This document shows positions 10,236-64,000 of a stretch of 64,000 bases of DNA, in pieces. How positions within the stretch are numbered: the first letter of the stretch is position 1; each line of letters begins with the position of its first letter. This DNA comes from Psammoneis japonica (Eukaryota), in assembly GCA_008632985.1 (NCBI GenBank), contig QPGO01000031.1, positions 124,001 to 188,000 on the forward strand. Reading direction: 5' to 3'. The notes under the pieces were generated by a model. The model saw only the letters and a program-made list of their open reading frames with translations, had not been told where the DNA came from and did not search any database. The position numbers were made by a program, and so were the translations under genes.

Positions 10236-10719
10236 TGTGGAACGAGAATTTGTTTTGATTGACGAGGTGTTCGTTTTGCTTTTTATGAGTCGTATCGCGG
10301 CGCTCCGACAGAGAAAATGTGAATGGAATGAGTGCCGGTAGAGGGTACGGGCTCAAATACCAAGAAAGCCATTTGTCCACAATCTTTCCCTAAAGACTTT
10401 TGAACTCCCTTGGGCAATATTAAATGACTCAAGCTGGCATTAGTTAGAACACTGTATTTAACACAAAAACATGTTAAATGTTCAAGATTGATTAGGAAAA
10501 CAAAATGGCACTTCTGTGTCGTGTAAATGCCGGTCTAGATCATATTCAGATTCGTGTTGATCGGACACAAAATCGATTGCTGAGTCTTTGAATCCTTAAA
10601 CGATTTCTAGTTAAGTGTTTTCATTTATTATGGATTATTACCCAAGCAGACATTTCATATTGCTTTTCCATTTGCCTGGTGGATCGTGGGAGATCTTGCA
10701 CCGACAGGCAGCGAAGTCC

Positions 10720-11850
10720 GTCACACACCCAACTTTGATGCGGTTGGACAAGCGGATGTGACAATTCGCCAACGTGGTGGGCCAGCAAGTCCAGCTCTTG
10801 TTGACCGATTGAACACTTCAGGATCTAACACAAAGAGTCCCATCCTCAGACAAGTCCACTTCACATGGAACCTTGCCTTGTCGACATCATGATTGAAAAA
10901 CAGCACACCAGAAACTTTTGCACATCGAAGACAAGCCTCCCATTTTTTTGTCTTGAGCCAGCCCATGACGGACCTTGCCACGCTCATCGCTTTTTGAACT
11001 GAGCTTTGCAAGTGAGCCACAAACCCACTTTTGTTTTCACATGCCATGTGTGAGATAGCTGACTCTTGACACATTCGTCAATGCAAGCGCACCTGGATCC
11101 AGCAGCACGCTGGTCCGGCGAGCTCCTCTCTCAAGCTTGTCGTTCTCCTTGCAGTTTTGGCAGCATGTCTTGCCCTGCAATTTAGCATCAAAACCAAACA
11201 TGTGCCAGCACTTCCTGGTCTTGCACACATTTGTTGTGTGCAGCTTGGCTTCTTCCATGATGCTCTTGTCATCATGCATGCAGAAAACATCGGCGCAGTG
11301 GCGGACGTGCACCTCAGCTGACTGCATGTCCAATGCTTCACTGCACTCTCACAAAATTCTTTCACAGCATGACATCTTTGCTTCCACAACTCCACCCATG
11401 TAAACTGAAGTCTTTCAATCATCATGCATGGCACGTTCTCTCTGCCAATGTTGTTTCTTTCATCTGCACCTGTCATCAATTGACACAAGTTGGCAGCATC
11501 CCGTCTTGCATGTGGGTCAATGCACAGGGATGTCCTCCTGCTTGCCAACCCTTCCATGAGTTCATCCAATGAGAAGCTAAAATCTGCTGCTGCCCTCTGC
11601 AGATGCTCTGGGCATGGGTTCGTTGCGCTTGGTGTCCCGCTCATCGACAGTCCCATCGTGTCCTTTGTCTCAAGGAACTTTGGCAAACAGCCACTTGGCC
11701 ACTTCTTTTTGTTGGGTTTGAACCATGCAGCAACTTGCATGGATTGCATTGACAATGCACTCTTCCACATTCATTGTTTTCTTGACACAAACAATGTGCA
11801 TGGGCTCCAAAAGCTCCTCACCTCACCTCACATTCACACTGAACATTGAA
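10720..11850 (-). mobile_element. Possible 3' fragment of a degenerate non-LTR retrotransposon
   Basis: The remnant ...LQFTWVELWKQRCHAV resembles the C-terminal LWxxRNxxV segment of diatom LINE ORF2. Otherwise unrecognisable. Confidence 0.3.
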
Positions 11851-11851
11851 T

Positions 11852-14800
11852 TGTCAGGGATCTTTCACCCATGTGCATCAGAATTCTTGTCTGATGTCAC
11901 AAAGAACAGGTCTCGTGCCTGTTGTGCTTGAAGTCAACAGCCCACAATGGCTTGTTTGAACTTTTGGAACTTGTCACATTGCAGTCAGTGGCTTGGTCAT
12001 GAATTTCCCTTGCGTGTCATTGGCAGGACAATGCTGCACTCGAAAGTTGCCCTTCTTGATTTGATTGGCAACAAAGAAATGCTGAATGTTGAGTGCTCTT
12101 GACCACTTGCTGGCACTCTTGTGCCCATTGGTCTCAAACAGAATGGCGCTCTTGTTTTCCTGATGCAGGACATTCTTGTTGATCAAATGCCCTTGGTGCT
12201 CCATGAACAGCTTGGTCCACAGCATCACAGCCATGGCATCATTGACCTCAACAAGTTTCTCAGCTTCTGTGCTGCTTTGGGTGTCAGCTTCTGGCACTTC
12301 AAGATGGCCTGTGCTGCTCCACCACCTGTGGTCACAACTCCTCCAGTGTGGCTCATGAAATTGGGGTGCGCTGCAAATGATGCATCCACACACCATGAGG
12401 TCCTTCACACTCAATGCAGTGACTTTGTTTCTTGTCCAGTTCAGACCCCAGACACTTGAGACAATGGACTGCTGGCTTCCCACAATCCTTGTTGGCAGGA
12501 TTTCTCACTCATGTGCATGATGCAGTGACAGTGAGGTGCACATCCACCTGGCCTTTCTTGGACAGAAACAGTCTCTTGGCAACCCCCATGCATGGAATGT
12601 CTGAGCCTTCTCATCTGACAGTCTTGTTCCACTGGTGTCAAACATCTCTCCAGCTGGTGTTGCTGCTGAACCCACACTGTCTTTTCCAGAAACTGATCAA
12701 TCATCTTGCAAATGCAGTCTGCTGTGTCAACTTTCACTTTGCCCTTCTGACTGAAGTCCAGGGGGTCATGCCAAGAAAGACATGTCTCTTCCCTCACACA
12801 GCAATGACTTCACCCTGGCTGCCACACATCTTGTTCAGCCAGTTCAGGAACTTGTCATTTGCTTTTGGGTTCTTGTGGCTTGACAACAGGTCATCCACAT
12901 GAAATCAAATTTTGCGCTGCTTGCCATTGACCTCACAATTGGCAACGCAAGGATCGCATGTGTTGGTGAACTTAAACCCTGTCTTCTCCAAGTCTTTTTG
13001 AAATTTGTTGTTGACATGCCACAAATGGCTCTGATGATTTGGATGCAAAGGACTCTCTTGGCCACACAAGGTCTGCACAGGTTGGGATCAATGCTCACCA
13101 GCATGTCCACTGGCACTCCTGCAATCTTTGTCACAATCATCTGGTCTGTGCTTTCTCCAGGCTCTGGCATCACAGTCTGCACCAATGCACTTGGAGTGTT
13201 GGAACTCATTTCATTGCATCCTTCATGGGCATCAACAATCACCATTGTCAACATCCCCTCAAGAGATGCAGTGGGGCCAGCTGACTCATCTTTGTCCAGC
13301 CATTCTTTTGGGCAAGTTTGCCATTGCAGACAACTCACCCTTTTGTGTGACTTTGTCTCATTTCTCAGAGCAAGGAACATCAAGGCTGCCACAGCCTTGG
13401 TCCTTTCAGTCAGAGCCACATCCTTGACTGATGTTGGTGCAAAGCACTCTGTCATGTGACTGTTCAATTTCTTTCTCTGAGGCTTCACACCTCTTCTGGC
13501 CAAATGCTTTGAGGCCTTTGTGAGGCAAATGTTGCTGGGCAAAACATGTGCCCTCTCCACTTTGGAGTCTGTTGATGATCTCACATGTGAAGTGTGCTGC
13601 AAGTGCCATTGCTGTCTCTGCTTCACATTTGACATCGTCCTTTGGATTGGGGCTCATGTTGGAATGTAAATGGTGGTTGCTGCACTCAAGCTTGCATTGC
13701 TCTCTCACTGCTTTTCCAGCTTCTGTCACTCCTGCAAATCAAACTTTCTTTTCTTCATGTTCGTGTGAAGTCAGTTGAAGGATGCACCACTTCTCAGGGT
13801 TCTGCCAGGTGTGGCTCTTGCTTCTTCCTCCAGTCACTGTCCTTCCATCTGCTGTCATCTTGGGAATCAACATCCCCTTCAGACTCTTCATTGTTGCAGT
13901 TTTTGCTCTCTTTCACTTCTTGCTCTTTTCTTGAGCTTCGTGCTGTTGGTCAGGGCTGGGCCTTTCATTGGCCAGCATCTCATTTGCTTATCACATTCAT
14001 CATCTGAGTCAGGTTTGTCTTTGCAGTCTTCATCTTCTGACTTGGTCATGCAGTTTGCATTGCTTTTGCTTTCTGTGATTTTGTCTTTGTCATTGCTGTC
14101 ACTGTTGCTTTCATTTTTGTTGTTGTCCACTCCTGCAGTCCAACCAACATCTCGTAGATTGTTTCTGCATTTTCTTGCAAACTTGAATTCCTTGATGCCT
14201 TGTTGTGTGGCCATTGCTTTGACAGCCACAACATGCACATTGGTCAAGGGGACAGAGGTGCATTTGTGGGGGGTCAATGTCTTCCCCGTGTGCAGGTTCA
14301 CAGCATGGTGACCACCCTTGGGCAAGTCAAAACATGGTGGCAGGCAGATGCTGTTGACACCACCTTGTGGTGTTCATGTTGTCATTCTTGATGTGAGAAA
14401 TGACAAGTTCCCCAAACTCAAACTGAAAATGTTTGTTGCAGTCAAGGCTTTTTCATTGCAAAATTGTGTGTGGACTGCAAGTGTTGGAAATTCCTTCCTT
14501 TTGCAGGTGCACGTTTAACATGACAGCATTCTCTTGATTGTGGCTTGCTTGCACATCAGCTTGGGTGTCATCTTGTGCAGCATGTGATGCACAGTGGCTC
14601 AGGTTTTTGCTCCTTGATGGTCTGGATGCTTTGCTCACCAACTTCAGGAACATGGTCCTCTGCACTGTGTTTGAAGAACAAGTGCAAAAAAGTGGAGCAA
14701 ATGACAAAAAGTGGAAAATTGTGAGATTAGATTCTACATTGCAATTTTGGGATTCTCCAAAGGAACTCTCACAATGGCCTGAAGCTCATTTGCAATTTTT

Positions 14801-16900
14801 TAGACATCTGATCAATTCTGTGTGATTGACCTGACCATTGCATGCATCCATGATTGTCACATGGTTGACATGTGCAATGACACATGACCACAAATGTGCG
14901 CATGCTGCACCTCAGCATTCACAGAGATGAGCTCTAAATTCATGCCATCTCCGTGACTTCTGCCAGCATGTTGTTGAATTCTGGATCACACTGAATGTGA
15001 AATCCATCTTGAACAATGCCATGTTCTTGTGCTGTCAGAGAATCACATCCAAAGCTGTGCTTCTTGGACTTCAGTCTCACACTCAATTGGCACTTGATTG
15101 TCTTGTCAACCACATGCTTCCACAATGTCAATGCAGAGGGTCATGTCTTCTCTCTGCTTCTTGCAGATCTCTGGTGGAGTGGCAATGATGTTGCTCCTCT
15201 TGTGGGAGGTCTTGCCTTTCAGTGCATTGATCACATCTTTGAGTGGGGTGAACAGGTTTTTCACCTGATTGGATCATCAAAACAGCTTGAAATCCCTCAC
15301 ACTGGGCATTCCAGCCTCAGCCTCAATGCTTCCTCAGTGCTTGCCACCTCTTGTTTGGTGCAGCCCTTCACACTCTCTTTCACAGTTGGAACAACAGCCC
15401 TTGATGACTTCTGTGCTTCTTGATGGTCTTCTTTGTGACCTTGTTTTTGTCCTTCAACAGCATGCTCACATGCAACACACAACTCATCTTCTTGAAGTTC
15501 TTTCATGTGGTCAAGGAATCACTGTTTTGGTGCAAATGCATGCAGCCTGATGCCATTGACTTTGAACACCATGACCTGCTTGCCAGACTTCTTGTCCAGC
15601 AGACAGAACTCATCCACCACCCTGTTGTCCTTGCATGCAATGCAGCACTTGCTCTTCACATCCTTCAAGAAACTCAGGATGTTTGCTGTTGAGTTTGGTG
15701 ATCCAAGCTTTGTGTCACCCCATCCTGGCACAGTGCAGTCTTTGTCCAAAGCATCCACTTCTGCACTCATGGACAGGTCAATCTTCTTGACCCTTGCTGG
15801 TCACACATTGTGCACTGGACTCTGGGGCATCTCTTTGATTCTTAAATGTTGATGGGTGGTCATTTTCAGTGACCCATCCTCTGGTTGTTTCACTTCCAGT
15901 GTTTGCTCCAGGGACTTGACAAGTGTGTGGAATGGACATCAACCCCTCATGGAGTCAAGCACAAGTGACTGGATAAGCTTCAACAGCTTGATTGGGTCAT
16001 CTCTGATCCTCAAGTGACTGGGATTAGCCTGCACTCTTTGCTTTTCTTCATTGGCTCTGAGCAGCAATTATCTTGGATTCTTGCCACAAATGTGGCACTC
16101 TTGTTTTCTTTGAGCTTCTTGACTTTCTCATTGCAGAAATGCAACTTGATCTTGTGCTCATGTTCCAGTTGCCTTTCTTCTCTGGCCTTCTTGTTTGCTG
16201 TTTTCTGGCAATCCATGTCTGATGCTGCTGGCACTGCTGCAGATGCCATCTGCAGCATTGGACTCTTGCCAGCAAAAGTCACACATGCCATGTCTTCCAG
16301 GGACCTTGCCAGATGCATGCCTTGATCAGAGCAATTCTTCTGCACCATGTTGATGATCTTTTCCTTGATGTCTCCAAACATCACATTGCATGAGTTGCTG
16401 TTCAATGATGGGCAAAACTTCATTTCTGGCTGAAAGCACTTCTCTTGGGGTGGGTCTTCTTGCTCTTGTTGCAGCAAAACTTGTGGCCTCTGCCACCATT
16501 CCACCTCCTTCTCTGCCACTCACAGTGCAGGTTTCTTGTTTTGGATGATCAAATGGAGGCCAGTGTCACATGCACTGAATGCAGTGCTCTTGACTCTTTG
16601 GAGCGAATGTTGAACCAACAAGTCAATGTCACCAAAAGAGAGTCCTCTGAGGTTTCCTGTGCCACTTGTTGCACTTTGTCCTGGTTGCCATGGCAGCTGT
16701 GTGGTTTGCCTGGAAGCTCTCAACAAACTTTGATCTCACAACACACAAAGGGTGCCCATTGATGCCACAGCATGCTTTGCACAAACCAGACAATTCGCTC
16801 CAAAGAGCAAAATGAAAGAAGGTTGGTGAGATCAGTGATGAGCACACATTTGTTCTCAAAGTGTCACCCAACTCACCATGTCAGGATCCAAAGCATCATC
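11852..16900 (-). mobile_element. Degenerate Ty1/copia (CoDi-like) LTR retrotransposon
   Basis: RNase H remnant SSTEAE..V.DAM..MLWTKLFMEHQGH..NVLHQENKSAILFETNG..S.SK.SRALNI.HFFV...TKPL (11974..12483). RT remnant ALMFL and GPTASLEGMLT (about 12900-13400), integrase remnant about 14300-14900, gag-like region about 16000-16500. A possible LTR end ...CCTGACA followed by TGGT lies at about 16879. Confidence 0.85.
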
Positions 16901-16976
16901 TCTTCAACAGATCTTTTGCTGGGTTTCTCATGTTTCCCCCACTCTTTCTAGATGCTCCAACACATTTAAACCAAAA

Positions 16977-17060
16977 TGCAGCATTGGATGTCACCATTTT
17001 GACTTGCATCTTGGGGTTTGCAGCATTGGATGTTGCAATTTTGATTTGCATCTTAGGGTT
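16977..17060. repeat. 42-bp tandem duplication
   Basis: TGCAGCATTGGATGT...TTTTGA.TTGCATCTT.GGGTT occurs twice with period 42. Confidence 0.75.
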
Positions 17061-18069
17061 TGGCAGCTTTGCACTTGACTGCCCTGTGCATTTTGAGCAC
17101 ACTTGCTCTGGCACTTTTTTGGTTTTTAACCAAAACAAGAAGAACAACACAACCCTTGCCCCAAAGAAGTGACATTCATTGCCAGATGATGAGGGTTGAT
17201 TGGGGCTTTTCCAAATCCTTGTCTTTCACTCATCCTTTTCTTTTGCACTTTCTGGGCTGTTGGGCTCAGTTGATTTCTGCAAGGATGCCAAGACCCAAGT
17301 GCTGGCAGCACAATGAGGTTCTAAAGAATGACCACATGTTTGACTGCTCTTGTTTCAAACAGCAAAGGACAGCTCATGGCTGCTTTAGCTCACAACAAAA
17401 TAAAGGCTGTCACTCTAGACAACCAGCTGCTGAGCACATCATTTCCCTTGCCCCCAAGGTCACACTCATCTCAATCATTTGCAGCATTTTAATGATTGGT
17501 GCACAGACAGAAGTTCTCAAGAGTTTTCATCAGCTCAAATCTTCCCCTTTCTGAGAGCAAAACTTGCAGCTCTTGCCTTTCCCAAGAAGAGTGCCAGCCC
17601 ACTCCAACCATGGAGTGAGTGGGTGGGTGGTGGGGAACTGATTTTGCTGCAGACATGTGGCCATTGGCACACAACCTGGGAGATCACATCATTCTTGTGG
17701 GTTTGCCAGAATTTGAATCCACTGGCCTGGAGATGCACAATCTTTCCTCTGCATGGAAGGGCTCAGTCATTTCAGGTTTTGATGCTGACATTTTTCCTGT
17801 TGTGCCTTGCCCACATGAGCACAAACAAGTGGGGCAGTCCATGCAGGCTGGTTGAAGCACTTCCTTGCAATGCTCATCTTTCTCTTCTTGTTCAAGATTC
17901 CAGTGCAGCATTGACAATGAGCAACAACAAACATGTGAATTTTCATGTGGCAGCGGGCAACTCACAAACTCATGGCACATTTGAAGAGTTCATCAATGTG
18001 GTTCAACAAGCAACAAGCTGCTTGCAAACACAGTTGTGGATGGAGCTGACACAGATTTCATGATGTTTT

Positions 18070-19200
18070 TGAAGGAAAAGTGGAGTTTGGTGGGGCATTC
18101 TGAAGCTTCTGTGATGTCACATGAATTGCACAGCTTGTGAGAAGAGTTTGGTGTGCCTTCAATGCACCGATGCAAGGATCATTCCAATGGAAACAGTGCG
18201 GAGTGTGGCAGCTGTCAGCAGAAGAATTGCGGTGAGGCAAAGCAAAAGCTTGCTCTGAAGAGGGTGTGCAAAGTCGGGTGTCCTTTGCCAAAGCCTGCCT
18301 TCCACTCCTTTGCAGCACCAGTGTCAGAATTGTCTCTTTTTTGGTCCATGGCAATCGATGACCAAAAAATCATTTGAGATGCAACTTCAAGTTGCTTGAC
18401 ATTGTGTTCATCAAAATGTGCCAAGTGTTCTTCAATCTTGTCACCATTTTGCAAAAGTTCCACGTGCCACTAAAGGGCACCATTGGCAAAAAAGTCTGGC
18501 TCCCCAGCCACAGTGTTGCCACTTGAGTTGGTGGCACATGTCTTCAATGGACTTTGTGCATTTCAAAATCTTGATTGCTTTGCATGAAGGCACACTGCGG
18601 CAGCCCAAAATCAACTGCTGCTTGATTGCACAGCTTCTGGTGCTTCTCCAATGACAAGGTCACAACTCACAAAACATCAACGGTGAAAATGGCATTTGTC
18701 CCTGTGATGCTCATTTTCAAAGACCAGTTTGACAGGCTGGATGGTGGTGGAGAATTGGCTGTGAGCACAACAAAATGGGGGCTGTGCAGTGTTGCACTGC
18801 TGTTCACCCACACTGTGCAGATTTGGTCACTGGCATCCCAGCGCTTGTAAAGTCGAGCATCAAACATGAGCAGTGGGGGTGGGTGACTCACACCATGTCA
18901 AGGCACATTTGGAGAGTTTGTGGACAAGGCTCAACAAGCCACCTGCGAGCACAGTTGTGAAGTTGGAGCAGATGCTGCAACGTTTAAAATGGAAAAACGG
19001 AGTTTGGCGGCACTCCAATCAAGCACGAGTGATGAATGGGGATGTTCTCTAGATTCTGCATGATGCGCAGGCAAATGGAGCCAAGCATGCCTTTTAACAC
19101 ACCGATGCAAGGATCATTACACTAGAACAAACAGTGCCAAAATTGGACAAATGCAGTGGCTGCCAGCAAAAGAATTACGGCGAGGTGGAGCAAAGAAAGA
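18070..19200 (+). repeat. Diverged direct repeat pair (about 18070-18250 and about 18990-19200)
   Basis: Shared blocks GGAAAA..GGAGTTTGG, CACCGATGCAAGGATCATT and GCTG.CAGCA.AAGAATT.CGG.GAGG. Confidence 0.65.
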
Positions 19201-19559: not shown

Positions 19560-21030
19560 TCGTCGATGGGCTAACAGGTGACATCTTCGCAAAGGCTTTT
19601 TGGTCCTTTAAAGTCGCCACCAATAGTATCGTCACAGCTATCTTTCCGTACGTTGTCGAGGCACATCCCATTGAAGCAGCACGCTCCACGGTCATCAACT
19701 TTGGGCTCACATGTGACATCTTTACAAAGGCTCTTTGGACCTTTAAAGACACCGTCAGCATCTTCACAACTGTCCTTTAGTGCGTCGTTGAAGCAACGAC
19801 CGCCGACGCAGCACGCTCCGGGCTCATCGTCGACGGGCTTACAGACGACGTCTTCACAAAGGCTATTCGGTCCCTGAAAGACGCCGTCAAGACTATTTTC
19901 ACAACCATCTTTCAGGACGTCGTTCATACAAGTCCCATTGTAGCAGCACGCTCCGGGCTCATCTTCTATTGACTCACACGTGATATCTTCACAAAGGCTT
20001 TTCGGACCTTGAAAAGCGCCGCCAGAATCCTCACACTCGTCCTTTAGGACGTCGCTGGAGCAAAGCCCGTCGACACAGCACGCTCCGGGCTCATCGTCGA
20101 CGGGCTTACAGACGACGTCTTCACAAAGGCTATTCGGTCCCTGAAAGACGCCGTCAAGACTATTTTCACAACCATCTTTCAGGACGTCGTTCATACAAGT
20201 CCCATTGTAGCAGCACGCTCCGGGCTCATCTTCTATTGACTCACACGTGATATCTTCACAAAGGCTTTTCGGACCTTGAAAAGCGCCGCCAGAATCCTCA
20301 CACTCGTCCTTTAGGACGTCGTTGGAGCAAAGCCCGTCGACACAGCACGCTCCGGGCTCATCGTCGATGGGCTTACAGACGATGTCTTCACAAAGGCTAT
20401 TCGGTCCCTGAAAGACGCCACGAGTATCTTCACAACCATCTTTCAGGACGTTGTTGACGCAAGTCCCATTGTAGCAGCACGCTCCGGGCTCATCTGCTAT
20501 TGACTCACACGTGACATCTTCACAAAGGCTTTTCGGACCTTGAAAAGCGCCGCCAGAATCTTCACACTCGTCCTTTAGGACGTCGTTGGAGCAAAGCCCG
20601 TCGACACAGCACGCTCCGGGCTCATCGTCGATGGACTTACAGACGATGTGTTCACAAAGGCTATTCGGTCCCTGAAAGACGCCACGAGTATCTTCACAAC
20701 CATCTTTCAGGACGTTGTTGACGCAAGTCCCATTGTAGCAGCACGCTCCGGGCTCATCTTCTATTGACTCACACGCGACATCTTCACAAAGACTTTTCGG
20801 ACCTTGAAAAGCGCCGCCAGAATCTTCACACTCGTCCTTTAGGACGTCGTTGGAGCAAAGCCCGTCGACACAGCACGCTCCGGGCTCAACGTCGATGGAC
20901 TTACAGACGACGTCTTCACAAAGGCTATTCGGTCCCTGAAAGACGCCACGGGTTTCTTCACAACCATCTTTCAGGATGTTATTGATACAAGTCCCATTAT
21001 AGCAGCACGCTCCAGGCTCATCTTCTTCCT
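19560..21030 (-). repeat. Coding tandem array of 132/135-bp units in alternating A/B (CCYNGT / CCVDGL) dimers
   Basis: GCACGCTCCGGGCTCA recurs about every 132-135 bp, and adjacent dimers are nearly identical. Confidence 0.9.
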
Positions 21031-22735: not shown

Positions 22736-22813
22736 TGTGGACCAAGAAGAATCGTAATGATTGCAAGCAAAAGTTGATTCGTATTTCGTTTTATGAGAAG
22801 CAAAAAGCCAGTC

Positions 22814-23020
22814 TGGGGGACGTCTTCGGAAGTGAGACTGTCGAAGAAAGTTACGTAGAATTTGTACTAAAACAGTCTGTCAATCAGTGCGATTGGGTAT
22901 TTGGGACCTCTGGACAGATCCTACGTGTTTTCTTGCGCGTACAAAATGTACTGGGAAAACCCCCAAACGCACTGGCGATCAGACCGCCTTCGACGATCTC
23001 ACTTCCAAAGACGCCCCCCA
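22814..23020. mobile_element. 207-bp MITE with 33-bp TIRs and 4-bp TSD AGTC
   Basis: Left TIR TGGGGGACGTCTTCGGAAGTGAGACTGTCGAAG vs right TIR reverse complement TGGGGGGCGTCTTTGGAAGTGAGATCGTCGAAG (29/33). AGTC flanks both sides. The paralogous locus at about 49360 has the empty site GCC-AGTC-GTGTCG. Confidence 0.9.
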
Positions 23021-53639: not shown

Positions 53640-56600
53640 CATTCGCCGTGTTCGCCGATGGCAAAACACAAAATGACCGACCAACCATCTGCCGTCAGAT
53701 TGAGCAAGCTAAACACCCTCATTGTTGATCTCGCATGGTGCAGTGGCACACATGATGATGTAGAACACTGCGCTGCAAAGATGATGAATGGAAAAGTGCA
53801 GAAAAACTCGAGAGAGAGAGAGAGTGCCGTGCTGCTCTGCAGCCTCAGAGCCAGAGTTGGCCAGAGCCTCTGGCAGCGTGAATGCTCCATTTCAATGCTC
53901 AGACTTGGCAGTCAAATTGTCAATTCATTTGATGAAAGAAAAGTGAACAATGTGCTGGTCAAATGTGCAGCATCAAAAAACTGAGCCACAGCCTCCTCTT
54001 TCTTCTGCGCCACCTCTCGACGACCACCCCCCTTTGAAAAAAACACAGGAGAGCAGCAAAAGAGCCTCAGCAAGTGCACAAGAGCTGAGAGTTTGCACAT
54101 TCTTCCACTCCTCCATCACACACTGGATGAGATTGGCACTGATGATCATTGTCAGCAATCTTTTCTGGGCTGGGCACAGCTGCTGTCTCTCTGCACAGAG
54201 AAGTGGCGCGCTCCTCAGGAGAGATGAGTCCAAAATGAGATGGGCAGCCAGAGTTGATGCACAGAAGCTCAGTCTTGTGGCTGTTCAGAAAAGTGTTGTC
54301 ACTCATTTTCCCATCTGTCTGCACATGTGCATTCTGGCTTCAGAGGGGGAGCCAACTGAAATGCCACCCCACCAGCAGGGTGGCATTTTTCAGCTGCCTC
54401 CCCAAAGAGCAGTTGCTGGCTCTGCTGGCGCACAGCAGCCACTCTCTGTCACATGACATTGTGCACATTTGCACATGACTTGCTTGACAGTTTTCTCTCA
54501 GCAAAAAATTTTGGTTGGTGTCATGAAGTTTTTGAAAAAGATCCCTGCTGTTTTAGTGTCATCACACAGGCATGCAAACTCAGCTCTTGCAGATGCTTGC
54601 ATTTGCAAGGAGGTGCAAGAAACAACAAAAAAGCCCCCCCCTCAAGAAATGATGAAGCACCACGCAAATGGCACCACAAGGCTGCAAGGTGGCAATGCTG
54701 TGCCAAAGGAAATTTGCTCTCATGTTTGGAGGCATGAACCTTCACACCAAGCACTGGCTTGCACCCCTGCCCCCAGCCAAATTTGCACCCTGTTCCACCA
54801 CATTGCAGCAAGTTGCTCCATGCACCACTGAGTTGGCTGCTGTGTCTTGACATCACAGAAAAAAGCAGCCATTGGCATTCAAGCAAGGGAAAGAGTGGAG
54901 TCCAGAAAAACTGCAACTGCTCTTCTCCAACCCACCTCCACTTGAGCTCCCAGATCTGGCCCAGCCCTGAATGCCTGAGCTGCTGGTTCATTTGGAGATC
55001 ATGGCTTCATCAGAAGAGCAAGCCATTTGTCTCATCTTTTGCCCACTTGCCACCTGCCTGTGTCCCAACAATTATCCCAGATCAGTGCAAAAAAAGAAAA
55101 GATGCTTTTGCTGGCCCACACTGCCCCAAGTGGAGCCTTGGGAGAGCTCAAACATTTCTGGCTTGCCCGCAGCCTCTGAAGAAGAAGCAAATGTTGTGGC
55201 ACAACTTCTTTGACCCCCCCCTCTCTTGGTGCTCACTGAAAAAGAGCATTGGGTGCCTTTTGAGCCAACCTTTCTGCTGTGCAGCAAGCAAAGTTTTTTC
55301 ACATCACACAATCAATGTGGTGCACAAGATGGCAGCCGTGGCTGTGTTGCCCTTCTTTGCACCACACATCTCAGCAATCTTTTGAGAGTGCTCTCTTGCA
55401 AAGCTCCTGCATTGGGTCAAACACACACACAGCAGCAAAATGGCCAAAAACAAACACACAAAAGGAACCTTGGCATTGAAACCCAAACCTGAGTGCTGTG
55501 GTTTGTTCAACAAAACCTCTTTGTTGAGCACAAAAAAGAGAAAAGAGCACAGCCACCCAAAAAATCCAGCACAAGCAAACTGCTGTGTCTTTGCCAATGA
55601 CTGCTTGGTCACAAGACCAGCTGGAAGATGCAATGCACTTGGGTGTTGTGAGGAGCTTCAATGATGTTAGAGCAAAAGCAAAAGATTGACCTTCTTTTAA
55701 ACAGAAATCATTGAAGCCCATGCAGACACAGGAAGCATTGAAATGGGCAGCGTCAGTGGAGTTTTGCAAGGAAGAGGGATCAAGCCAGGGAGGTTTGGGC
55801 TGAGAAGAGAAGGTGGGTGAGGAAGTGCCAAAGAGGAGTCAATGGGAGAAGCAGCCAAGACCACCAAGGTGGTCAATGGCAAACGGGAGGAGGAAGATCC
55901 CCCAGTGGCGTTGAGGGATTAAATGGTGAGGAGGGGGACCCACAGGCAGAAGAGGAGGTGGAAGGACCCAAAAACTTGGATCTCATGCTTGTGTGGTGTG
56001 CCTTGGTNNNNNNNNNNNNNNNNNNNNNNNNNNNNNNNNNNNNNNNNNNNNNNNGGAGGAGCTGCTTTGGGAATGGTGACATCGATGGCGCGATGTGTCG
56101 ATGCTGGTTGGAGGGGGCGGAGAGGTGAAAGCGGGGGGGGGGGGGTGGAGATGCCAACATTGGCTGGTCACAGGAGGGGATGATGGGAGAGAAGATTTGC
56201 AGGTTGGAGATGAACATTGTTGGAGGAGTGGCAAAGCTTGGAGAGAAGGTCAAGGGTGTGAGTGAGAACGAAGACAGTGTCTCGGATGCCATTTGAAAGT
56301 TTGGATGTGTGGGGGGCCTTGCATGCAAAAAGGCATGATCGCCAAAGGCATCCAGAGCAGCACGGCCACAAGGGCAAGGAGAGTTAATGAGAGAGAGAGA
56401 GAGAGAGGAAGAACCAGAAGGCGAAAGGTGAAGCTGGCATTGGATGGCCACAGCACTCTCGTCAGAACAAGCAAGGTGTGAGAGGCAGCACGGCATCGAG
56501 CGAGGCTGGTGAGGGGAGACAAAAGGGAGGGAAGAGCTGTCTGAATTTCAGGGGGGAGTCAGATGGCAAGGGCCTCTGAAATGATCCACTGCTGGTGGGC
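53640..56600. other. Hypermutated block C
   Basis: TpA nearly absent from about 53640 to 56580, CpG depleted in the core. Confidence 0.85.
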
Positions 56601-56750
56601 GTGATAGAGGCCGCGGGCTCTAGAGTAGCCAGTGCAGCAGGTAGAGAGCACCGCACCTTCGTCGGATCCAACGTGCGCTGTAGCATGTGTCGGAGAGTGA
56701 TCTGATCCGCGAAAATTCGTGAACGACAATCTTGCTAAGAAGAGATGCCA
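55700..56750 (-). mobile_element. 3' fragment of a non-LTR retrotransposon with restriction-like endonuclease (CRE/R2-type)
   Basis: CPCG..LDAFGDHAF, (H/S)NGIRD and AIDVTIP motifs form a CCHC knuckle plus REL endonuclease signature. Confidence 0.6.
56008..56054. other. Assembly gap
   Basis: Run of N. Confidence 1.
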
Positions 56751-57184
56751 GTCGATCCCTTAATAATTGTGCACAACATTTATCTAGAAATATACTAGAT
56801 ACTTAGGAACTAAAGGAGGAAACAATGACTCATTCGGCAATGCAATGCATAGTGAAATGGGTTGAATAAATGTATCATTTTTAAGAAAGACATCGGACAT
56901 CTGGTGTCAACGGCACTAATCACAAGTGTATAGGTCCGGATTTGTTAAGTAGAGAGTGTCTCATAAAATCTATGTAAACGTCACCTACAGTACCGACCAA
57001 AGATGATTCTCCGCTCCTACAGTACTGTACGTGTACGTACCGTACAAATCTACGCTTCCTGTACGTACGACGCGCCACTTTTTCTCTTTTGGATGAGTGG
57101 CTTCAGGATCCTGATGGATCCTCGAATCTCACAACTCACAAGAAGAATTTCGTCAAGTCCGAACTTAAAATAGTCCAGGACAAG

Positions 57185-59665
57185 ATGAAGTTCTTTTGCA
57201 AGGTAGTTTTGCTCCTGCTTGCTTTTGCTCTTTGTGAGGCAACAGGTATGTAGCGTTCAGGTGTTCACGACGGGTGTCGACTAGAGAACAGCATAGCTCA
57301 CACATTGAGTTGAAATCGGGTGTTTTTCTTCAGACGTGTCAGCAGAGTTCGAACCGAAGGAAGATTCCTCTTCAAACGTAAGTAGCAGGGTGAGAGTAAA
57401 CTATCGTGACAGCCTTTCTCTTTTGGTTCCTTTCTCACAATGTCGCCATTTCAACTTTCTATATCAAAGAATGTGTTGAACGAAGAAGTCGATGACGCTG
57501 AGGACCCGTCCGAGAGGATCCTAGCGGTAAGCGAATTCATAATGTGTCGAGGCGTTTTGATTACCAATGTCGCTTTCTAACACCTTCCGCGTCGTGCAAA
57601 TGTGTTTCAGATTCCTTATCCTCCCAAGGGGGCGTGTTGTGAAGCAAACGCGCACCCACCAAAATGCACAGTCATCCGTCAAGGGAATTGCGAAGACCGA
57701 GGAGGCTACTACGTTGGAGACGGGACCAAATGTCGAGCCAACAATTGTCCAAAAGCTTTTGGCGCCTGTTGTGACCCCGAACCAGATGGAGAATGCTTCC
57801 TCTCGAGGCCTTCTTTTTTGCGCTTTGAAGAAGGGTGCGTCCACGAACCACGATAATAAACGATAATCAAGGTCGCCAGTTCCTCCACCTTTACTCACTT
57901 TGCTCACCTCCCGCCTTTTCATTCCGTTCCTTTAACTATTTAGGATATTATGCCGGTATCAGTACGACATGTGATGTTTGCCTCAGCCCGCCGACCCCAA
58001 GTCCTACACCCGCTGTTTCAAACCGCCTCGGTGCTTGCTGTGACTTGGAGGGTGGAAACTGTCAGGAGGTTGTTCCAGAGTTCTGTAGGAAGGGAACCTT
58101 CCTTGGAGCGGTAAGCCAGGATTACTATTTGACGCGGAGCGTCTTGAAATTGTCCATCTCAGCTAAGCTCATTTTGAATCTTCTATTTCCTAATAGGGTA
58201 CATCCTGTGATCAAGCGACTTGTCCGCTGCGTGGTGCTTGCTGTAGGACTACAGTGTACGGAGAGAAAAAGTGCACGAAAATCAAGAAGAAGTGGTGCAT
58301 TTTGAATGGAGGTGAGTACTGCTGTCACACACACACACACTTTAAACCGAAACGTACTCGCTACACTACCTGCACTCACACTCTGCTTCTCCGTCTGTAT
58401 TGAATGATGTTGAAGGTGAATTCAAGGGCTTTGGTGTCGATTGCACACCGGAATTTGCGATGATGATACTGCACCAACGCCGAGTCCGACACCAGTTCGA
58501 ACCGGAGCATGTTGCTTAAAGTTCAAGTAAGTCTCGACCAGTGCATGGATCGTTTGTTCGCAGAACACAGGTCGTCTTAACTATCATGGTTTTTTACTAT
58601 TTTTTGGCGTTTTGCGACAGGAAGCGTTGCATAAGGAGTGTCACGGAGGGCTCGTGTGAATCCTTGAATGGAATATACCAGGGTGATGGCACGGTAAGAA
58701 TTGTTACAACATAGATATTGCAAGAATGACTCGGATTCTAAACACCCCTTGTGCGTGTTTTTTGCTTTTTCAGACCTGCACCACTGGCCGCTGTACCGTG
58801 CGGGGTGCATGCTGCCTGCCTTCTGGTTTATGTCTCCCTAACCAAAAAAGAACCCGTTGCCGCAAGCAGCTCTATGGTCAATACCAGGGCTTTGGAACAC
58901 CATGTGAAAAAGATACTTGCCCTGCGAGTAGTCCAACACCAGCTCCCACACCGCCGCCTACAGCGCGACCAGTCGTCAAAAGAGGAGCTTGCTGCTTGCC
59001 GTTCGGAACACGCAAATGCGAAATCCGTACAGCGTTGGAATGCGCTTTTTCCTCTGGGGATTATCGAGGAGACTATACGTCGTGCAACACTCAACTTTGT
59101 CCAAGGCGAGGGGCCTGCTGTCTTGACAATGGAGCTTGTGTCACGTCTAATCTGGGTAGCTGTGCGTCAATAAATGGAGTCTTTCAGGGTCGCGGTTCAA
59201 GTTGCAACGCCCCAGGCTTTTCCTGCCCGAAACCACCTACCCCAAGTCCCACTCCGCGCCCGACACGCTCTGTGTATTACTATCCAACCCCGAGCCCCAC
59301 TCCGCGTCCGTACCCAACGCCAAACCCCACTCCTCAACCCGTGTATTATTACCCAACCCCGAGCCCCACCCCGCAACCCGTGTATTATTACCCAACCCCG
59401 AGCCCCACCCTTGCGCCCGTACCCAACGCCAAGCCCCACCCCGCCACCCGTGTATTATTACCCAACCCCGAGTCCCACTCCTCGTCCGACCCAGACGTCG
59501 ACAACGGAACACTTTGGAGCCTGCTGTGACAAGTTTTACCAGTGCATTGAGACCTACAAGTTTGTATGTGATGCAGTCGATGGCAAAGGCGTAGGTGGCA
59601 AATTCTTCGAAGGAAGTCATTGCAAAATGCCCAATGGCCATCCAGGGTGTCCAGTTCAACCTTAG
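57185..59665 (+). CDS. Secreted Cys-rich GACC-repeat protein, paralogue 4, with Pro/Thr linkers and extensin-like repeats (many introns, some apparent frameshifts)
   Basis: Exon 1 57185..57245 MKFFCKVVLLLLAFALCEAT has the same 61-nt length and phase as paralogues 2 and 3. GACC repeats occur in successive exons, and the C-terminus is FGACCDKF...GCPVQP*. Confidence 0.8.
59235..59490 (+). repeat. Coding repeat PTPSPTP(Q/P)PVYYY / RPYPTP
   Basis: GTGTATTA(T/C)TA(C/T)CCAACCCCGAG occurs four times. Confidence 0.85.
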
Positions 59666-60049
59666 CCACCACCCAGTTCGTCCACCTACTAGGTATGTGT
59701 GTCCTTTGAGGATACCAATGATCTGTTCTGTTTGTATATAGGATGCCAATTACCTTGAGCCTGAGAATACTGGCAAATTGTTTAAGTCGGTATTCGATTG
59801 CCGCAAGGGCATCTCTGTGTTTCGTCTCAGCTGTCCGAGCCGCCTTGAGGAAGGATGCGGCCAATGGGGCTTGGATCAAATAGCAAATTAATAATGTCCA
59901 TTTTCTGTGTACAATGCAGTAGTGCCATCGTAACATTGCGCAGCCCGTTTCCCGTGTGCGATCCCAATAATTTCTAACCACCCTGCTCCATTCTCTCAAG
60001 CGGAAAAAGCAAGTCCAACACATCTCAGTCATGACCATTAAAAACTTTG

Positions 60050-63000
60050 CCTTGTGATTGCGTTTGTTCATGTCAGTTACAATTTGCCCGCATCGCTCCT
60101 AAATTGCTGTTTAGCCCCCCCCCCCCAGATGCTCCAGGTGGCAGAATCCTGTTTTTGGTTTTATTGGGTTTTTGCCAGCATGGACACCAGATCCCGTGTG
60201 GGTTCCTCCCAGCAGGTCTCCCAAAAGGTGAGGCTCCAAGCACACACTGCAGCCAGCTGCACATTTGTGACAAGCGGTGCTCACCCAAATGATTTCTGAT
60301 GTGTTGTCTCAGAGCAGCAGTGGCCAGGTCAACAATCTCCCCACACAAAGCAGAACATCCTGGCACAAGAAATAGTGAGAGGGGCAGATCTCAGAGAGAT
60401 CTGCTTGGCTGCCCAAAAAGTGGTCTGACCTGCCATCCACAAATGGACTCCCTCCACAGTGGTGTGCACAGCACCAGGTGTGCTGACACCCTCCCCTGCA
60501 GCATGCAATGTTTGGCTCAAGATGCTGCAGGTCACACAAAGAAGAGAGTGATGGCACAACATCATAGACCAGAGATGACAAAAAAGCAAAAGTCTGTCAC
60601 ACAAAATGGCAGGGGGGGCAGCTCTGCATGGGTGCTTCACCCTTGCAGAGCACACAAACAGCAACATCCCATTGTGATGCATTGGGCATGCATCCACTCC
60701 ATGTCCTTGGCAAGGTCATTTGCCAGGATTGATGGCATTGGGAGTGCAGTGCCTCTCATCACAATTTTGCTGACGCCTCCTTCTGCAGCCCAAAATTGTG
60801 AAACAACAGCGGGCATTGATGTGGTGCACAAAAGCTCAGCAGGAACATGGTTGTCAGCAATGTTGACCATGAAGTTGTTGTCCATGAACAAAGGTGTGGG
60901 TCTTTCCTCCCAAGGGAGCCCCAGGTTGTTCTAAAGCACATGGTGAAGAGGGGCCAACCACAGCCATGGGTTGGGTCTTGCAAATTTAAAAGAGACCACA
61001 GCACACACCAACACCATGCTTCCACCATGGCCAGCAGTGGAGCGTCAACTGTGCAAATTGTTTCCACAAAAGCAGCACCCAGGAAAGCCATGTCAGAGCA
61101 TGGCATGAGCTTGTGGATTGTGCATGATGACTTGAGGCAGCGGACACATGCATGCTCATTGCAGCAGGCCATCTGAAACATCATCCCCAACATGATCAAA
61201 TGCCCAACCACCATTCTGCAGTTGGACAGGAAACACCAAAGCAGGTGAGCACAACATCCACAACCAGCTGTGTGCAATTTGAAGTTGAGGTGCCACTGGC
61301 AGATGCTGTGTGATGAATCATCATGGTGCACACTTGGTTCACCACACAGCAAGGCTTTGTGATTGCGTGTCAAGTTGATTGTAAAAGAGAGCCATCAGCT
61401 GGGACAAGGTGGCCCATGCAATCCAAGTGACACAGGTTGCCACCAGCAAATGGGGCAAGCAAGTTTTGCAAAACCATTTTGTTTGCCACATTTTAGCCAA
61501 GCCATGTGTGGACATCCAAAGGCAGTGCACAGCTGGGCTGGACAGATCATGTTTGGATGACAGCAACATTGTCAGTGTCTCAGCAGCTGCACTGGAGGTG
61601 TTCTGGGTGTGCTGTGCAGCAGTTGTCACTCAAAATGCTTCAATCAGGTCAGAGACATTGGCAGAACTTGACTTGGCAGGACAAGGCACCACTGGAGGAA
61701 CAGACGTGCTCATTTTGGCAGAGAAGGCTGGCCAAAAAACTCACTCCAGCCCTTGTGATTGTGCTGCATTTTGCTGGGGGGCTGAAGTGTGCACGCATTG
61801 TTGCGTGAATCTCAATGACCACATGCATGAAGCACATCTTGAGGGCCTGTGTTAGATCTTGTGGTCTGACATCTGTCAAGACAGACTGGATGGCAACCCA
61901 CCACCAACATGGAGCTTTTACTTGGAGCAAAGCTTTCTCACAAAGTGATGCAGCAGATGTGACATGGATTGGAGGGGTCCCTTGCATTTGGTGGAATGAA
62001 GTTCTAAAGGATGTGGTCAGACAAGAGCTCATCAGCACAATCTTTTGATGATTTCATGTGTGCACTTCTCATCCCCCCAAAAAGGTCCAGATCAAAAATT
62101 GTTCTGCCACAATTGCCTCCCAGGAACTCCATGGCTTTGGGGACATGAGGGAATTTCTGAAAAACAACCTCAGTTGAAACAAGGGCATTGACAACAATCA
62201 TTTTTTGCTTGGGAGTCACCATGGGGAGCGTGCCCAAAAATGTTGCTCCTGCAGTGTGCAGAAGGCCAGCGTTGTCCTGCAGCCGACAAAATGCTGCAGT
62301 TTTGAAAAAAGCTGCAGGAACAGAAACTTGGGGCAAGCTTGGTGTCAGACCACAAACCAAATGAGCCAAGACAGGGCTCACAGTGCAGAAGAAAACATGA
62401 CAAATCACAAGGCCACAGCCTGCACACCTCTGGCAAAGCTGCAAACAATGTGATGGCAGCTTTTTCTGTTGTCCTTTGCAGTGGGGCAAATGAGGAGCTC
62501 AGGCTGCTGACATTTTGCACTCTTCTTTTCAAGTGCTCTTGCGGCTTGTCTTGTCTTTGATGACCTTGGTTGCAAGCTGCACTGTGCCTTTCTTTGGCAA
62601 GTCTGTTGCATCACCAAAGAAGGGGCTTGTGTCTTGCCAAGCTGCCCCAGGAGAGTTGGTGGCCCAAGCAAGTGCAGCAGGCAGCTGTGGCAGCATGTGC
62701 TGCTAGATTTTTCACATGTCTGTGTGCTGTGCCTGTGTGTGGAGCACTGACCATGCTGAAGCTTGCTTGGAAAGGGTGGCTCCAGCCAAGGGATCTTGCA
62801 GCAGATGATGTTTGCCAGAGATTGTCACAAATGAGTTGTGTGCCACAGCTGCCTGTGCCAGCTCTTGATGCACACATGTTGTGTGTGATGATGAAAGCTT
62901 TGTGTGCAAATTGTGACCATCCATGGTGCCTTGGGCATGGGTGCTGGTTGGTGATCTGTGCAAAAGCCTTGCTGCTGTTGCAGAACATTGGAGAGCTCAG

Positions 63001-64000
63001 CATGAGACAGATTTGCAATTTTTGCAAATGAATTTTTGTCACACACTTGTGCTTCTCACGCCATCTGCACCACAAGCTGCCCTCTTGTTGCTTGGCACAT
63101 GCGCATCCTTGAGGGGCACAGCTTGGCACCACTGGTGCTTGCCTCTCTTGTGTTTGTGGTGTGGTGCACAGGATCATCTTCCACATGCATTTGGAACATG
63201 TTGTTGCTCTTGTTCAAAATTGGAATCTGCTCAACAAGAAGTCTGTGTTGTTGTCAACAAATGCTTGTCAATTGTGAACAAAGTTTCTTTGATGATTTGG
63301 TCTTGCAATGCATGCATTCTTGACAAGATGATTTTTGCACATGTTTGCAACATGACAACAGTTGATGACATGCTGTCAACAATTGACAACAAAAGTGAGC
63401 CGGTAAATGACACTTGATGAATCTGGTTGACTCAATCGAAAAATTGCCCTTCTTGACAAATGCACATTGGCTCTTGACTGGTGCCCATGTGCAGCTGTTT
63501 GCTGAGATGTTTCATTTTTGTTGACACACCACATTGCTCCAAACCAATCTTGCTGATGGTTGCAGTTCATTGTGTGTGATCTGAAGGTGGTTGCAGTGCT
63601 TTTTGCAGTTGCTGTTGGCTCTGATGATGCCACTTTCTGTTGTGTGATGTTTGCTGCATGCTGTCTTTCCTTGTTGTTGTTGCTGCTGCATTGCTTTTGG
63701 CCTCTCCATTCTTCAAGCCAAAACATCTGATTTTCATTGCATCTTGGCACAGATGGCTGCTGTTTTGTTGTTGCATGTTGTGCCAAAAATCTTTCAGGGT
63801 TCAAATGCAGTCAATTCACTTGCTTGCTTTCTTTTGTTGATTGTGGCAGCAATCCTGGTCAGAAGAGAGCAAAGAAGTGGTCAGTTGTTGGGGGGCTGTG
63901 TTGTTTGGCAAGCTTTGTACAACACATTTTGCTGTTTTGACACACCTGTTTGCAACATTTCAGCACTTGCAAACATCCTTGGCTGTTTTTGCAAATTTTT
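60050..64000. other. Hypermutated block D (ancestral element not recognised)
   Basis: Extreme TG/CA enrichment with TA and CG both rare. No motif that I can assign. Confidence 0.85.

Follow-up and report, generated by a model that had tools for sequence, protein, structure and literature searches.

Four stretches of a diatom contig have lost nearly all of their TpA, while the genes beside them have not. What removed it, and did the change take place on chromosomal DNA? We examined the whole stretch of 64,000 nt from Psammoneis japonica contig QPGO01000031.1 (hereafter the window), which represents one assembly, and drew on analogy with other contigs. Our best explanation, which we hold with good confidence, is a real, domain-restricted mutator that converts TpA to TpG or CpA on integrated DNA in the diatom nucleus.

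Composition of the TA-poor blocks

A sequence-only reading of the window had described four TA-poor blocks among genes of normal TA content and had suggested sliding dinucleotide obs/exp as a check. Scans at the 1-kb and 200-bp scale across the 64-kb window reproduced the blocks at ~10.8–19.2, 23.4/23.8–45.2, 53.7–56.6, and 60.1–64.0 kb. TpA obs/exp was 0.04–0.13 in the blocks (0.059, 0.036, 0.125, 0.048, and 0.058) versus 0.58–0.72 in five host segments, and TG and CA obs/exp in the blocks were 1.44–2.05. CpG obs/exp was 0.08–0.15 in every block, the feature expected of 5mC-type decay, except in the interior of a Copia element (38,982–45,221), where it was 0.75. The older domains are as follows.

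10,800–19,200, no strand: Block 1, old TA-/CG-depleted domain; 34 TA, obs/exp 0.059; CG 0.130, TG 1.76, CA 1.98
23,780–38,762, no strand: Block 2a, old TA-/CG-depleted domain with piggyBac and Copia remnants; 35 TA, obs/exp 0.036; CG 0.154
53,700–56,600, no strand: Block 3, old TA-/CG-depleted domain spanning a 47-N gap at 56,008–56,054; 7 TA (obs/exp 0.05) in 53,700–56,007 and 1 TA (0.04) in 56,055–56,600
60,100–64,000, no strand: Block 4, old TA-/CG-depleted domain running past the window end; 15 TA, obs/exp 0.058; CG 0.079

The block edges are sharp: the single TA of 56,055–56,600 is followed by 39 TA in 56,600–57,100 (obs/exp 1.02). Relative to host DNA, the blocks changed in dinucleotide frequency by −0.0374 for TA, −0.0412 for CG, and +0.0768 for TG+CA; shifts above 0.013 were seen for these four dinucleotides only, and the summed frequency of YR dinucleotides was 0.2383 in the blocks versus 0.2401 in host DNA. 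Because the TA and CG deficit is matched almost exactly by the TG+CA gain, TG/CA is the sink.

We ran 220 stop-to-stop ORFs (91 + 129; 70 aa or longer) from the older blocks against Pfam, which returned only two matches, a transposase and a second RVT_2 remnant.

27,697–28,548, minus strand: piggyBac-type transposase remnant (DDE_Tnp_1_7), Pfam E=1.6e-08
36,448–36,744, plus strand: older Copia reverse transcriptase remnant (RVT_2), Pfam E=4.8e-08

These scans found no Pfam family in 10.8–19.2, 53.7–56.6, or 60.1–64.0 kb, leaving three of the four blocks without a transposon classification, and confirmed no LINE. In the piggyBac remnant, all eight conserved Tyr columns were changed (4 Cys, 4 His, 0 Tyr), and R>C, R>H, R>W, and V>A replacements also occur.

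Mutation of resident DNA

The edge of the second block cuts into a duplicated host exon whose other copy lies outside the blocks. The best named relatives of that exon are diatoms throughout.

23,409–24,144, plus strand: host folylpolyglutamate-synthase (FPGS) exon duplicate fragment, truncated by the transposon block; colinear with 49,926–50,688 at 83% identity
49,926–50,688, plus strand: unmutated FPGS host exon, ancestral-like reference; Mur_ligase_C downstream, TA normal

The hypermutated part of the duplicate is its transposon-proximal half (23,780–24,144). Here all 16 TA were changed, 13 of them to TG/CA (7 CA, 6 TG), as were 17 of 21 CG (15 to CA or TG). TG/CA changed at only 4 of 50 sites, and ApA at 4 of 34, equal to controls. 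This bears out, along with the mass balance, the direction from TpA to TpG/CpA and the enrichment of A>G at TpA that the sequence-only reading had anticipated. Across the whole fragment, 20 of 22 TA were changed. Control host duplicates outside the blocks had 26/72 and 20/66 TA changed, symmetrically in both directions, and in the 1.9-kb host duplicates at 20,889–22,813 and 47,496–49,363 TA is normal and the changes are symmetric. Of the two FPGS copies, only the one inside the domain is mutated, so the change acts by domain, on resident DNA. Together with the sharp edges, these unaffected duplicates uphold the proposed domain restriction.

Fungal RIP resembles this process in that transition hypermutation at one dinucleotide disables genomic transposons. 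Because RIP turns CpA into TpA, it creates TpA and stop codons; the change here is the opposite, destroying TpA, and under the genetic code TA>TG/CA cannot convert a sense codon to a stop. RIP also needs duplication and mutates both copies, whereas the 1.9-kb host duplicates were untouched and only the in-domain FPGS copy changed. We rejected RIP, as TpA is lost and not gained, TG/CA is the sink, and duplication is no trigger.

The second block ends in a young Copia element, which dates the two losses relative to each other.

38,763–45,440, plus strand: young Copia LTR retrotransposon, TpA-depleted with CpG near normal (LTR pair and pol alignment)
38,763–38,981, plus strand: 5′ LTR, domain interior; 5 TA
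40,843–45,032, plus strand: Copia pol coding region (tblastn), interrupted by two in-frame stops and, near 44,508, by a frameshift
45,222–45,440, plus strand: 3′ LTR, domain edge, lightly mutated; 10 TA, obs/exp 0.73

Its interior has a TA obs/exp of 0.125, a TpA loss of ~80–90%, with CG obs/exp still at 0.751; TpA loss is therefore much faster than CpG decay. The pol region is alignable to P0001 residues 18–1383. By tblastn, its 33 conserved Tyr columns read 4 Tyr, 16 Cys, 9 His, and 4 Phe (25/33 Cys/His), and an independent alignment of 29 Tyr columns gave 4 Tyr, 13 Cys, and 8 His. Residues other than Tyr were largely kept (e.g. Trp 23/23). Tyr retention is 0.15 in this element and at least 0.78 in all 145 homologues. 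The earlier claim that conserved Tyr in Copia, piggyBac, and LINE motifs reads Cys or His therefore holds for a retrotransposon (Copia, 25/33) and a DNA transposon (piggyBac, 8/8); its LINE component was not confirmed, as the Pfam scans of the older blocks found none.

The two LTRs differ in 15 of 219 columns (11 sites), every one a transition at a TA- or CG-derived site; no difference was found outside YR-derived sites within the 219 bp. The differences comprise ~13 TA-type events and two of CpG type. The 3′ LTR retains six TA lost from the 5′ LTR and lacks one that the 5′ LTR retains, and at three sites one LTR has TG and the other CA. The TA kept in both LTRs with listed context were all in TAR (3/3). 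Confinement of the differences to TA- and CG-derived sites implies mutation of the integrated DNA. We looked for a target-site duplication of this element and identified none.

These data bear on editing before integration, in which an adenosine deaminase would act on retrotransposon RNA or single-stranded cDNA as an adenine counterpart of APOBEC3 restriction. The pattern at L042, one of the metagenome loci described below, resembles such a burst on single-stranded nucleic acid, as past column 2255 a single strand carries 13 of its 14 events (CA). In the window, however, RTGY and RCAY are in balance (140:140 in Copia) and there is no run structure. Of the two LTRs of Copia, the one at the domain edge carries far fewer mutations, with 11 sites differing between them, and a DNA transposon and a host-gene fragment are affected equally. 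We consider pre-integration editing very unlikely and continue with a mutator of resident DNA.

Sequence context in the window and in related loci

For context tallies in the window, host tetranucleotide counts stand in for ancestral counts. The old blocks contained 1 RTAY versus 304 at host sites, and 19 TTAA versus 69. Surviving CpG sites did not follow the RTAY/YTAR rule seen for surviving TpA; this and the near-normal CpG of the young Copia agree with the earlier view of a mutator separate from CpG decay.

The comparison set was 79 related Copia loci from public metagenome contigs. Their median TA obs/exp was 0.67, and 75/79 kept Tyr at a fraction of at least 0.75. The idea that these element families are naturally TA-poor draws on the block composition itself and nothing more. 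Against it stand these relatives with normal Tyr and TA, the replacement of conserved Tyr in Copia and piggyBac, and the changes in place in the LTRs and the host paralogue. Native TA-poverty was ruled out on these grounds for Copia, piggyBac, and the host fragment, and we give it a negligible probability overall. The relatives thus do not natively carry Cys/His at these sites, a possibility that the sequence-only reading had asked to be checked.

Three of the 79 loci were hypermutated (L039, L027, and L060) and one, L011, was partially so. Their Tyr columns read 4 Tyr, 15 Cys, and 11 His in L039; 6, 11, and 12 in L027; and 5, 1, and 6 in L060. All three lost TpA while CpG stayed near normal. 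Together with the same state in the window Copia, this led us to reject CpG decay as the whole signal.

These loci also show the order of loss. Survival relative to intact loci was 0.09 for RTAY, 0.54 for mixed, and 0.97 for YTAR contexts in L027, and 0.08, 0.34, and 0.84, respectively, in L039. L011 and L042 form an early-stage pair at 98.7% identity, in which 34 of 71 substitutions are between TA and TG/CA, 29 of those 34 in RTAY, and an outgroup shows TA to be ancestral. Grouped by the base immediately 3′ to the A, mutation struck 22/281 available targets with C, 13/325 with T, 0/205 with A, and 1/183 with G. RTAY sites are lost first and YTAR sites survive, which is a new detail of this type of mutation.

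An artefact of base calling or sequencing would arise if 5mC at CpG and some base modification at TpA were misread while the true DNA kept TA and CG; both palindromic YR steps are altered in the same domains, as such misreading could produce. Finding the Tyr>Cys/His and RTAY-first signature in 3/79 contigs of other public assemblies argues against it. Moreover, a similar spectrum in Bigelowiella natans (see below) consists of de novo mutations in Illumina data, the young Copia kept its CpG despite lying in the same domain type, and ties between strand reads should leave some TA or CG calls, of which nearly none are present. The N gaps in the window differ in length (271 and 47), and one adjoins a C9 run, which weakly suggests scaffold gaps of a read-pair assembly. 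An artefact is, in our judgment, scarcely credible.

The sequence-only reading had also offered error-prone patch repair, in which a Pol-eta-like polymerase, drawn in by the T:G mismatches that 5mC deamination leaves, mutates WA sites in the vicinity. TpA and CpG losses do occupy the same domains. However, the young Copia lost most TpA with CpG obs/exp at 0.75 and only two CpG-type LTR differences, ApA was spared (4/34 changed, like controls), and the strict RTAY motif differs from WA. With TpA loss preceding CpG loss and ApA spared, Pol eta repair fits poorly and is highly improbable.

Known systems and a putative mechanism

In 2026, mutation accumulation in B. natans was reported to show hypermutation of viral DNA in the integrated state, by A>G/T>C changes at TpA only (Mettrop et al., bioRxiv 10.64898/2026.01.13.699255). 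According to that preprint, the de novo rate is ~1000x background and the process is active in some lines only. Over the long term TpA is lost and CpA+TpG gained, genes poor in TpA are enriched for RT and DDE domains, and an adenine deaminase is the proposed agent. The diatom process matches this hypermutation, in a stronger form. It is thus not an undescribed process, and the earlier statement that no description was known is outdated. As in B. natans, A>G/T>C is nearly exclusive, with CpG transitions as an extra layer in older blocks; the mutated A is preceded by T (TA 16/16 versus AA 4/34); and the changes are confined to foreign or mobile-DNA domains, though three of the four blocks here are unclassified.

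The B. natans host, in contrast, is a chlorarachniophyte (Rhizaria) and not a diatom. Its targets, as the preprint describes them, are mainly giant-virus and virophage insertions that keep TpA (Rho 0.45), whereas transposon domains here are near saturation (0.04–0.13). Rates there were measured as de novo mutations, and LTR differences serve only as a proxy here. The main text of the preprint contains nothing on CpG, flanking-base context, or diatoms; relative to it, the RTAY>YTAR hierarchy, the spread into adjoining host DNA, the LTR timing, and the coupled CpG decay are new.

Diatoms have CG methylation by DNMT5 (PMC9998398). Decay of CpG in methylated transposons accounts for one half of the older blocks' signal, the change from CpG to TpG/CpA; it cannot remove TpA, is slower (0.75 in the young Copia), and lacks the RTAY rule.

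APOBEC3 and ADAR, the latter through hyper-editing of repeat RNA, provide deaminase-based restriction of mobile elements, like the process proposed here. ADAR favors a 3′ G, the opposite of the 3′ pyrimidine found here. It prefers U 5′ of the edited A (cited in bioRxiv 10.64898/2026.01.13.699255). APOBEC3 edits LTR retroelements (PMC4866542), and APOBEC targets C, not A. Both enzyme types act on RNA or cDNA intermediates, while in the window the mutations fall on resident DNA, including a DNA transposon and host DNA; such editing of intermediates is contradicted by piggyBac, the host fragment, and the LTR–LTR differences. Among tRNA adenosine deaminases, TadA has U-A-C as its natural target, which resembles the T-A-Y context here. 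Amphioxus BjADAT2, a eukaryotic member, is able to deaminate both A and C in DNA; its preferred contexts are GAA for A and TCG for C, and it favors hairpin or single-stranded DNA (PMC10354150). As presented there, it is the sole eukaryotic ADAT2 shown to deaminate DNA, and its preference is GAA, not TA as here. An agent of this family would be a CDA-fold deaminase (HxE...PCxxC) that acts on nuclear DNA in a TA context.

In our explanation, the mutator causes A:T>G:C transitions that affect the TpA adenine of one strand or the other. RTAY tetranucleotides are attacked earliest and YTAR latest, until TpA is nearly gone. Any sequence inside a transposon-filled domain is a target, including Copia, piggyBac, and neighboring DNA of host origin over a few hundred bases, and at the domain edge the action ends within ~200 bp. 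CpG is stripped from the same domains afterwards by a second and slower process, the ordinary CpG->TpG/CpA decay expected from 5-methylcytosine.

For the chemistry, our leading inference is a putative DNA adenine deaminase, an enzyme that would turn adenine into hypoxanthine, to which we give somewhat less than an even chance. Alternatively, a dioxygenase-like enzyme could alter the T of TpA in silent domains to a 5-hydroxymethyl- or 5-formyl-uracil type base that mispairs with G, giving T>C. This accounts for the base pair that changes and for the symmetry of the RTAY motif as well as adenine deamination does, and it counts in its favor that 5-substituted uracils promote A:T>G:C transitions and that dinoflagellate 5hmU is enriched at TpA. 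Near-complete conversion, however, would demand very efficient mispairing, and we regard thymine modification as unlikely. The rest of the probability falls to some other chemistry.

Returning to the mutator itself, targeting via silent chromatin or methylation is plausible, and the process is putatively a genome defence. Conversion of TA to TG/CA destroys Tyr codons, and it may likewise destroy TA-rich control motifs.

Composition and content of the TpA-depleted domains

Dinucleotide scans of the 64-kb window delimited four domains with sharp boundaries, which we refer to as blocks 1 to 4:

~10.8-19.2 kb: block 1
~23.8-45.2 kb: block 2
~53.7-56.6 kb: block 3
~60.1-64.0 kb: block 4

The observed/expected ratio of TpA was 0.036-0.125 in the blocks, compared with 0.58-0.72 in five host segments, and TG and CA stood at 1.44-2.05 in the blocks. 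CpG was depleted there too (0.08-0.15), with the exception of 38,982-45,221 (0.75). The summed frequency of the pyrimidine-purine (YR) dinucleotides was nearly equal in the blocks (0.2383) and in host DNA (0.2401); relative to host DNA, the blocks had 0.0374 less TA, 0.0412 less CG, and 0.0768 more TG and CA together. The right edge of block 3 is abrupt, with one TA in 56,055-56,600 and 39 in 56,600-57,100.

In the old blocks, CpG loss was somewhat heavier in TCG-containing tetranucleotides (block/host count ratio 0.08-0.14) and weakest at GCGC (0.44). ACGT was scarce in the young Copia element of block 2 (7 occurrences vs about 25 expected at host density). The window also contains two runs of N, at 46618-46888 (271 bases, followed directly by a C9 homopolymer) and at 56008-56054 (47 bases, within block 3).

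Pfam searches and a self-comparison of the window identified the following elements, all in block 2 or at its right edge:

27,697-28,548, minus strand: piggyBac transposase remnant (Pfam)
36,448-36,744: second, older RVT_2 remnant (Pfam)
38,763-38,981 and 45,222-45,440: long terminal repeats (LTRs) of the young Copia element (self-comparison)
41,740-44,646: Copia RVT_2 in a 968-aa ORF (Pfam, only 35 bits)

Blocks 1, 3, and 4 contained no Pfam family. The scan covered 220 ORFs, each 70 aa or longer, and returned no LINE-like match, so the LINE motifs claimed in the sequence-only reading were not recovered. Within the window, tblastn found no further copies of the young Copia's family. A target-site duplication was sought for this element and not identified, and a PDB search with the piggyBac ORF gave no match. 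Under the genetic code, a change of TA to TG or CA never makes a sense codon a stop, which explains why long frames stay open on every strand of the blocks.

Mutation of integrated elements and neighboring host DNA

To define conserved tyrosine columns in Copia, we aligned 60 intact homologues to the window copy. At the 33 columns obtained, the window copy retained Tyr at 4 and carried Cys at 16, His at 9, and Phe at 4, and Trp was retained at 23 of 23 columns; a separate alignment gave a concordant result. Tyr retention was 0.15 in the window copy, compared with a minimum of 0.78 across 145 homologues, none of which shared its pattern. In piggyBac, all 8 conserved Tyr columns read Cys or His, and there were additional R>C, R>H, and R>W replacements of the kind expected from CpG decay. 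Three public piggyBac relatives, P0298, P0302, and P0295, kept Tyr at just 3/11, 4/10, and 5/10 conserved columns, with some Cys or His, and may represent additional cases of partial hypermutation elsewhere.

Host-derived DNA provided a second comparison. A host segmental duplication places 20,889-24,144 colinear with 47,496-50,688 at 83-88% identity (self-comparison). It carries one Cys-rich gene together with the beginning of a folylpolyglutamate-synthase (FPGS) gene, and the transposon block truncates one copy; the terminal piece, an FPGS exon, extends into block 2. Between 23,780 and 24,144, every one of the 16 TA sites differed from the normal paralogue (7 to CA, 6 to TG), as did 17 of 21 CG sites and only 4 of 50 TG/CA sites. 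Control host duplicates outside the blocks had TA changed at 26/72 and 20/66, symmetrically. Differences were few between 23,409 and about 23,780 and many beyond, so the effect extends out of the elements over a few hundred bases of host-derived DNA. We also considered a repeat-induced trigger and rejected it, as host duplicates of 1.9 kb were unaffected.

The Cys-rich host family consists of repeated units of about 45 aa with a GACC motif, and its only Pfam match is a weak one to zf-WIZ. One member, 791 aa long, contains numerous nearly identical internal repeats. The members are:

8245-9456, minus strand: Cys-rich family member
19571-21946, minus strand: Cys-rich family member
46964-48517, minus strand: Cys-rich family member
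58726-59529, plus strand: Cys-rich family member

Another ORF, at 51946-53463 on the minus strand (505 aa), matched no Pfam family, and none of the candidates scored from a collection of 5.8 billion proteins was a homologue.

The two LTRs of one element are identical when inserted. Those of the young Copia now differ at 15 of 219 columns, every one at a TA- or CG-derived site, with zero differences elsewhere. At 3 sites one LTR had TG where the other had CA; at 6 sites the edge (3′) LTR kept TA where the inner LTR had TG or CA, with 1 site in the reverse configuration, and 2 differences were of the CpG type.

Together, the Copia and piggyBac tyrosines, the FPGS fragment, and the LTR pair indicate that the change occurred after integration, in place on DNA, and at a rate far above that of background mutation or CpG decay. 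The signal of the blocks is mutation, not native composition. The sequence-only reading had proposed a TpA mutator restricted to domains, and both its observation and its interpretation hold in block composition and in these comparisons. An origin on RNA was rejected because the changes also reach a DNA transposon and a host fragment, and because RTGY and RCAY are balanced.

Sequence context and hypermutated loci in metagenomes

We scanned metagenome contigs with the Copia alignment and obtained 79 loci. Their median TA observed/expected ratio was 0.67, from which we conclude that the Copia family is natively TA-normal, and 75 of the 79 had Tyr retention of at least 0.75. Three loci (L039, L027, and L060) exhibited the same signature as the window with near-normal CpG, and a further locus, L011, was a partial case.

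Residues at conserved Tyr columns in the three hypermutated metagenome loci
L039: Tyr 4, Cys 15, His 11, of 31 columns
L027: Tyr 6, Cys 11, His 12, of 30 columns
L060: Tyr 5, Cys 1, His 6, of 12 columns

L039 is not a clean case, as it showed all 12 substitution types against intact relatives at about 18% divergence; TA was nonetheless by far its most affected dinucleotide (44/245 retained). The occurrence of such loci in metagenome contigs argues against an artefact of a single assembly, as do the unequal lengths of the N gaps in the window, one of which adjoins a C9 run. In L027, the 2-kb stretch upstream of its hypermutated Copia (L027:1-2000) had TA at 0.20-0.39 and partly lowered CpG (0.42-0.69); it resembles an older mutated neighbor, like the arrangement in the window.

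The order in which TA sites are lost was clear from an early-stage pair. L011 and L042, a second metagenome locus 98.7% identical to it, differed by 71 substitutions, 34 of which exchanged TA with TG or CA, and 29 of these 34 lay in RTAY, with TA ancestral according to an outgroup. The base 3′ of the mutated A was C in 22 of 281 available targets, T in 13/325, A in 0/205, and G in 1/183; two bases 5′ of it, before the T, we counted A 17 times, G 15, T 4, and C 0. Survival relative to intact loci followed the same order in L027 (RTAY 0.09, mixed 0.54, YTAR 0.97) and L039 (0.08, 0.34, and 0.84). In the old blocks vs host DNA, counts were 1 vs 304 for RTAY, 19 vs 69 for TTAA, and 26 vs 101 for CTAA/TTAG; the young Copia likewise had 1 RTAY vs 304. 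Surviving CpG sites shared no tetranucleotide rule that we could find, which supports two separate processes.

Whether a site became TG or CA followed no clean simple rule from its flanks in the saturated window data, and the flank rule was clear only in the L011/L042 pair. Strand balance in the window Copia was even (RTGY:RCAY = 140:140) and without run structure; strand-coordinated runs were absent from the window. In L042 aligned to L011 over columns 2255-5595, 13 of 14 TpA changes were on one strand, as T>C on the coding strand, which hints at one-strand bursts at this single locus.

Relation to a known process and implications

The sequence-only reading knew of no description of such a process. 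The same kind of process is, however, described in a 2026 preprint on Bigelowiella natans, in which 231 of 302 nuclear mutations in mutation-accumulation lines fell within two integrated viral regions, at about 1000 times the background rate (10.64898/2026.01.13.699255). All but one of these were A>G or T>C changes, each located on TpA; the preprint also reports 124 clusters poor in TpA and rich in CpA and TpG, as well as enrichment of RT and DDE domains among TpA-poor genes. Its main text mentions neither diatoms nor CpG nor flanking context, and we found no report of the signature from diatoms in the open-access literature searched.

The window belongs to a diatom and not to B. natans, since the named relatives of the FPGS exon are all diatoms (Seminavis, two Nitzschia, Chaetoceros, and Mayamaea) and the Copia family cluster includes a protein from Fragilaria crotonensis; an atlas search with the FPGS exon returned generic FPGS clusters only. 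The window thus differs from the B. natans case in its distant algal lineage, its transposon targets, its near saturation, and the slower CpG decay layered on the loss of TpA.

Adenine deamination is our leading inference for the chemistry, at a little under even odds, and a mispairing modified thymine is an improbable alternative. The preprint proposes an ADAT2 homologue as its candidate (10.64898/2026.01.13.699255). The DNA-active example that it cites, amphioxus ADAT2, favors GAA for A and TCG for C (PMC10354150); an agent of this type is therefore possible, though the known context does not support it.

Somewhat more tentatively, the process could be an old genome defence common to diatoms and chlorarachniophytes, and perhaps to much of SAR. 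A nuclear enzyme would recognize RTAY, a symmetric DNA word, within silenced mobile DNA and convert A:T to G:C on resident chromosomes, disabling elements through the loss of Tyr codons and TA-rich control signals, never through new stops. Such a defence would parallel fungal RIP in marine organisms, with the chemistry reversed, and would be common enough to be detected in ocean metagenomes.

In practice, TpA-depleted domains yield long spurious ORFs, let transposons escape profile searches (Pfam scores down to about 35 bits), and skew composition-based calls of genes and horizontal transfer in diatom genomes and metagenomes. Any mechanism must accommodate the RTAY-first order, integrated duplex DNA as the substrate, sharp domain edges, and independence from CpG decay. 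These constraints give a search for the enzyme concrete criteria, and some members of the group are genetically tractable. If confirmed, our findings would extend TpA hypermutation from one species in one 2026 preprint to two distant algal lineages, with transposons as a main target.
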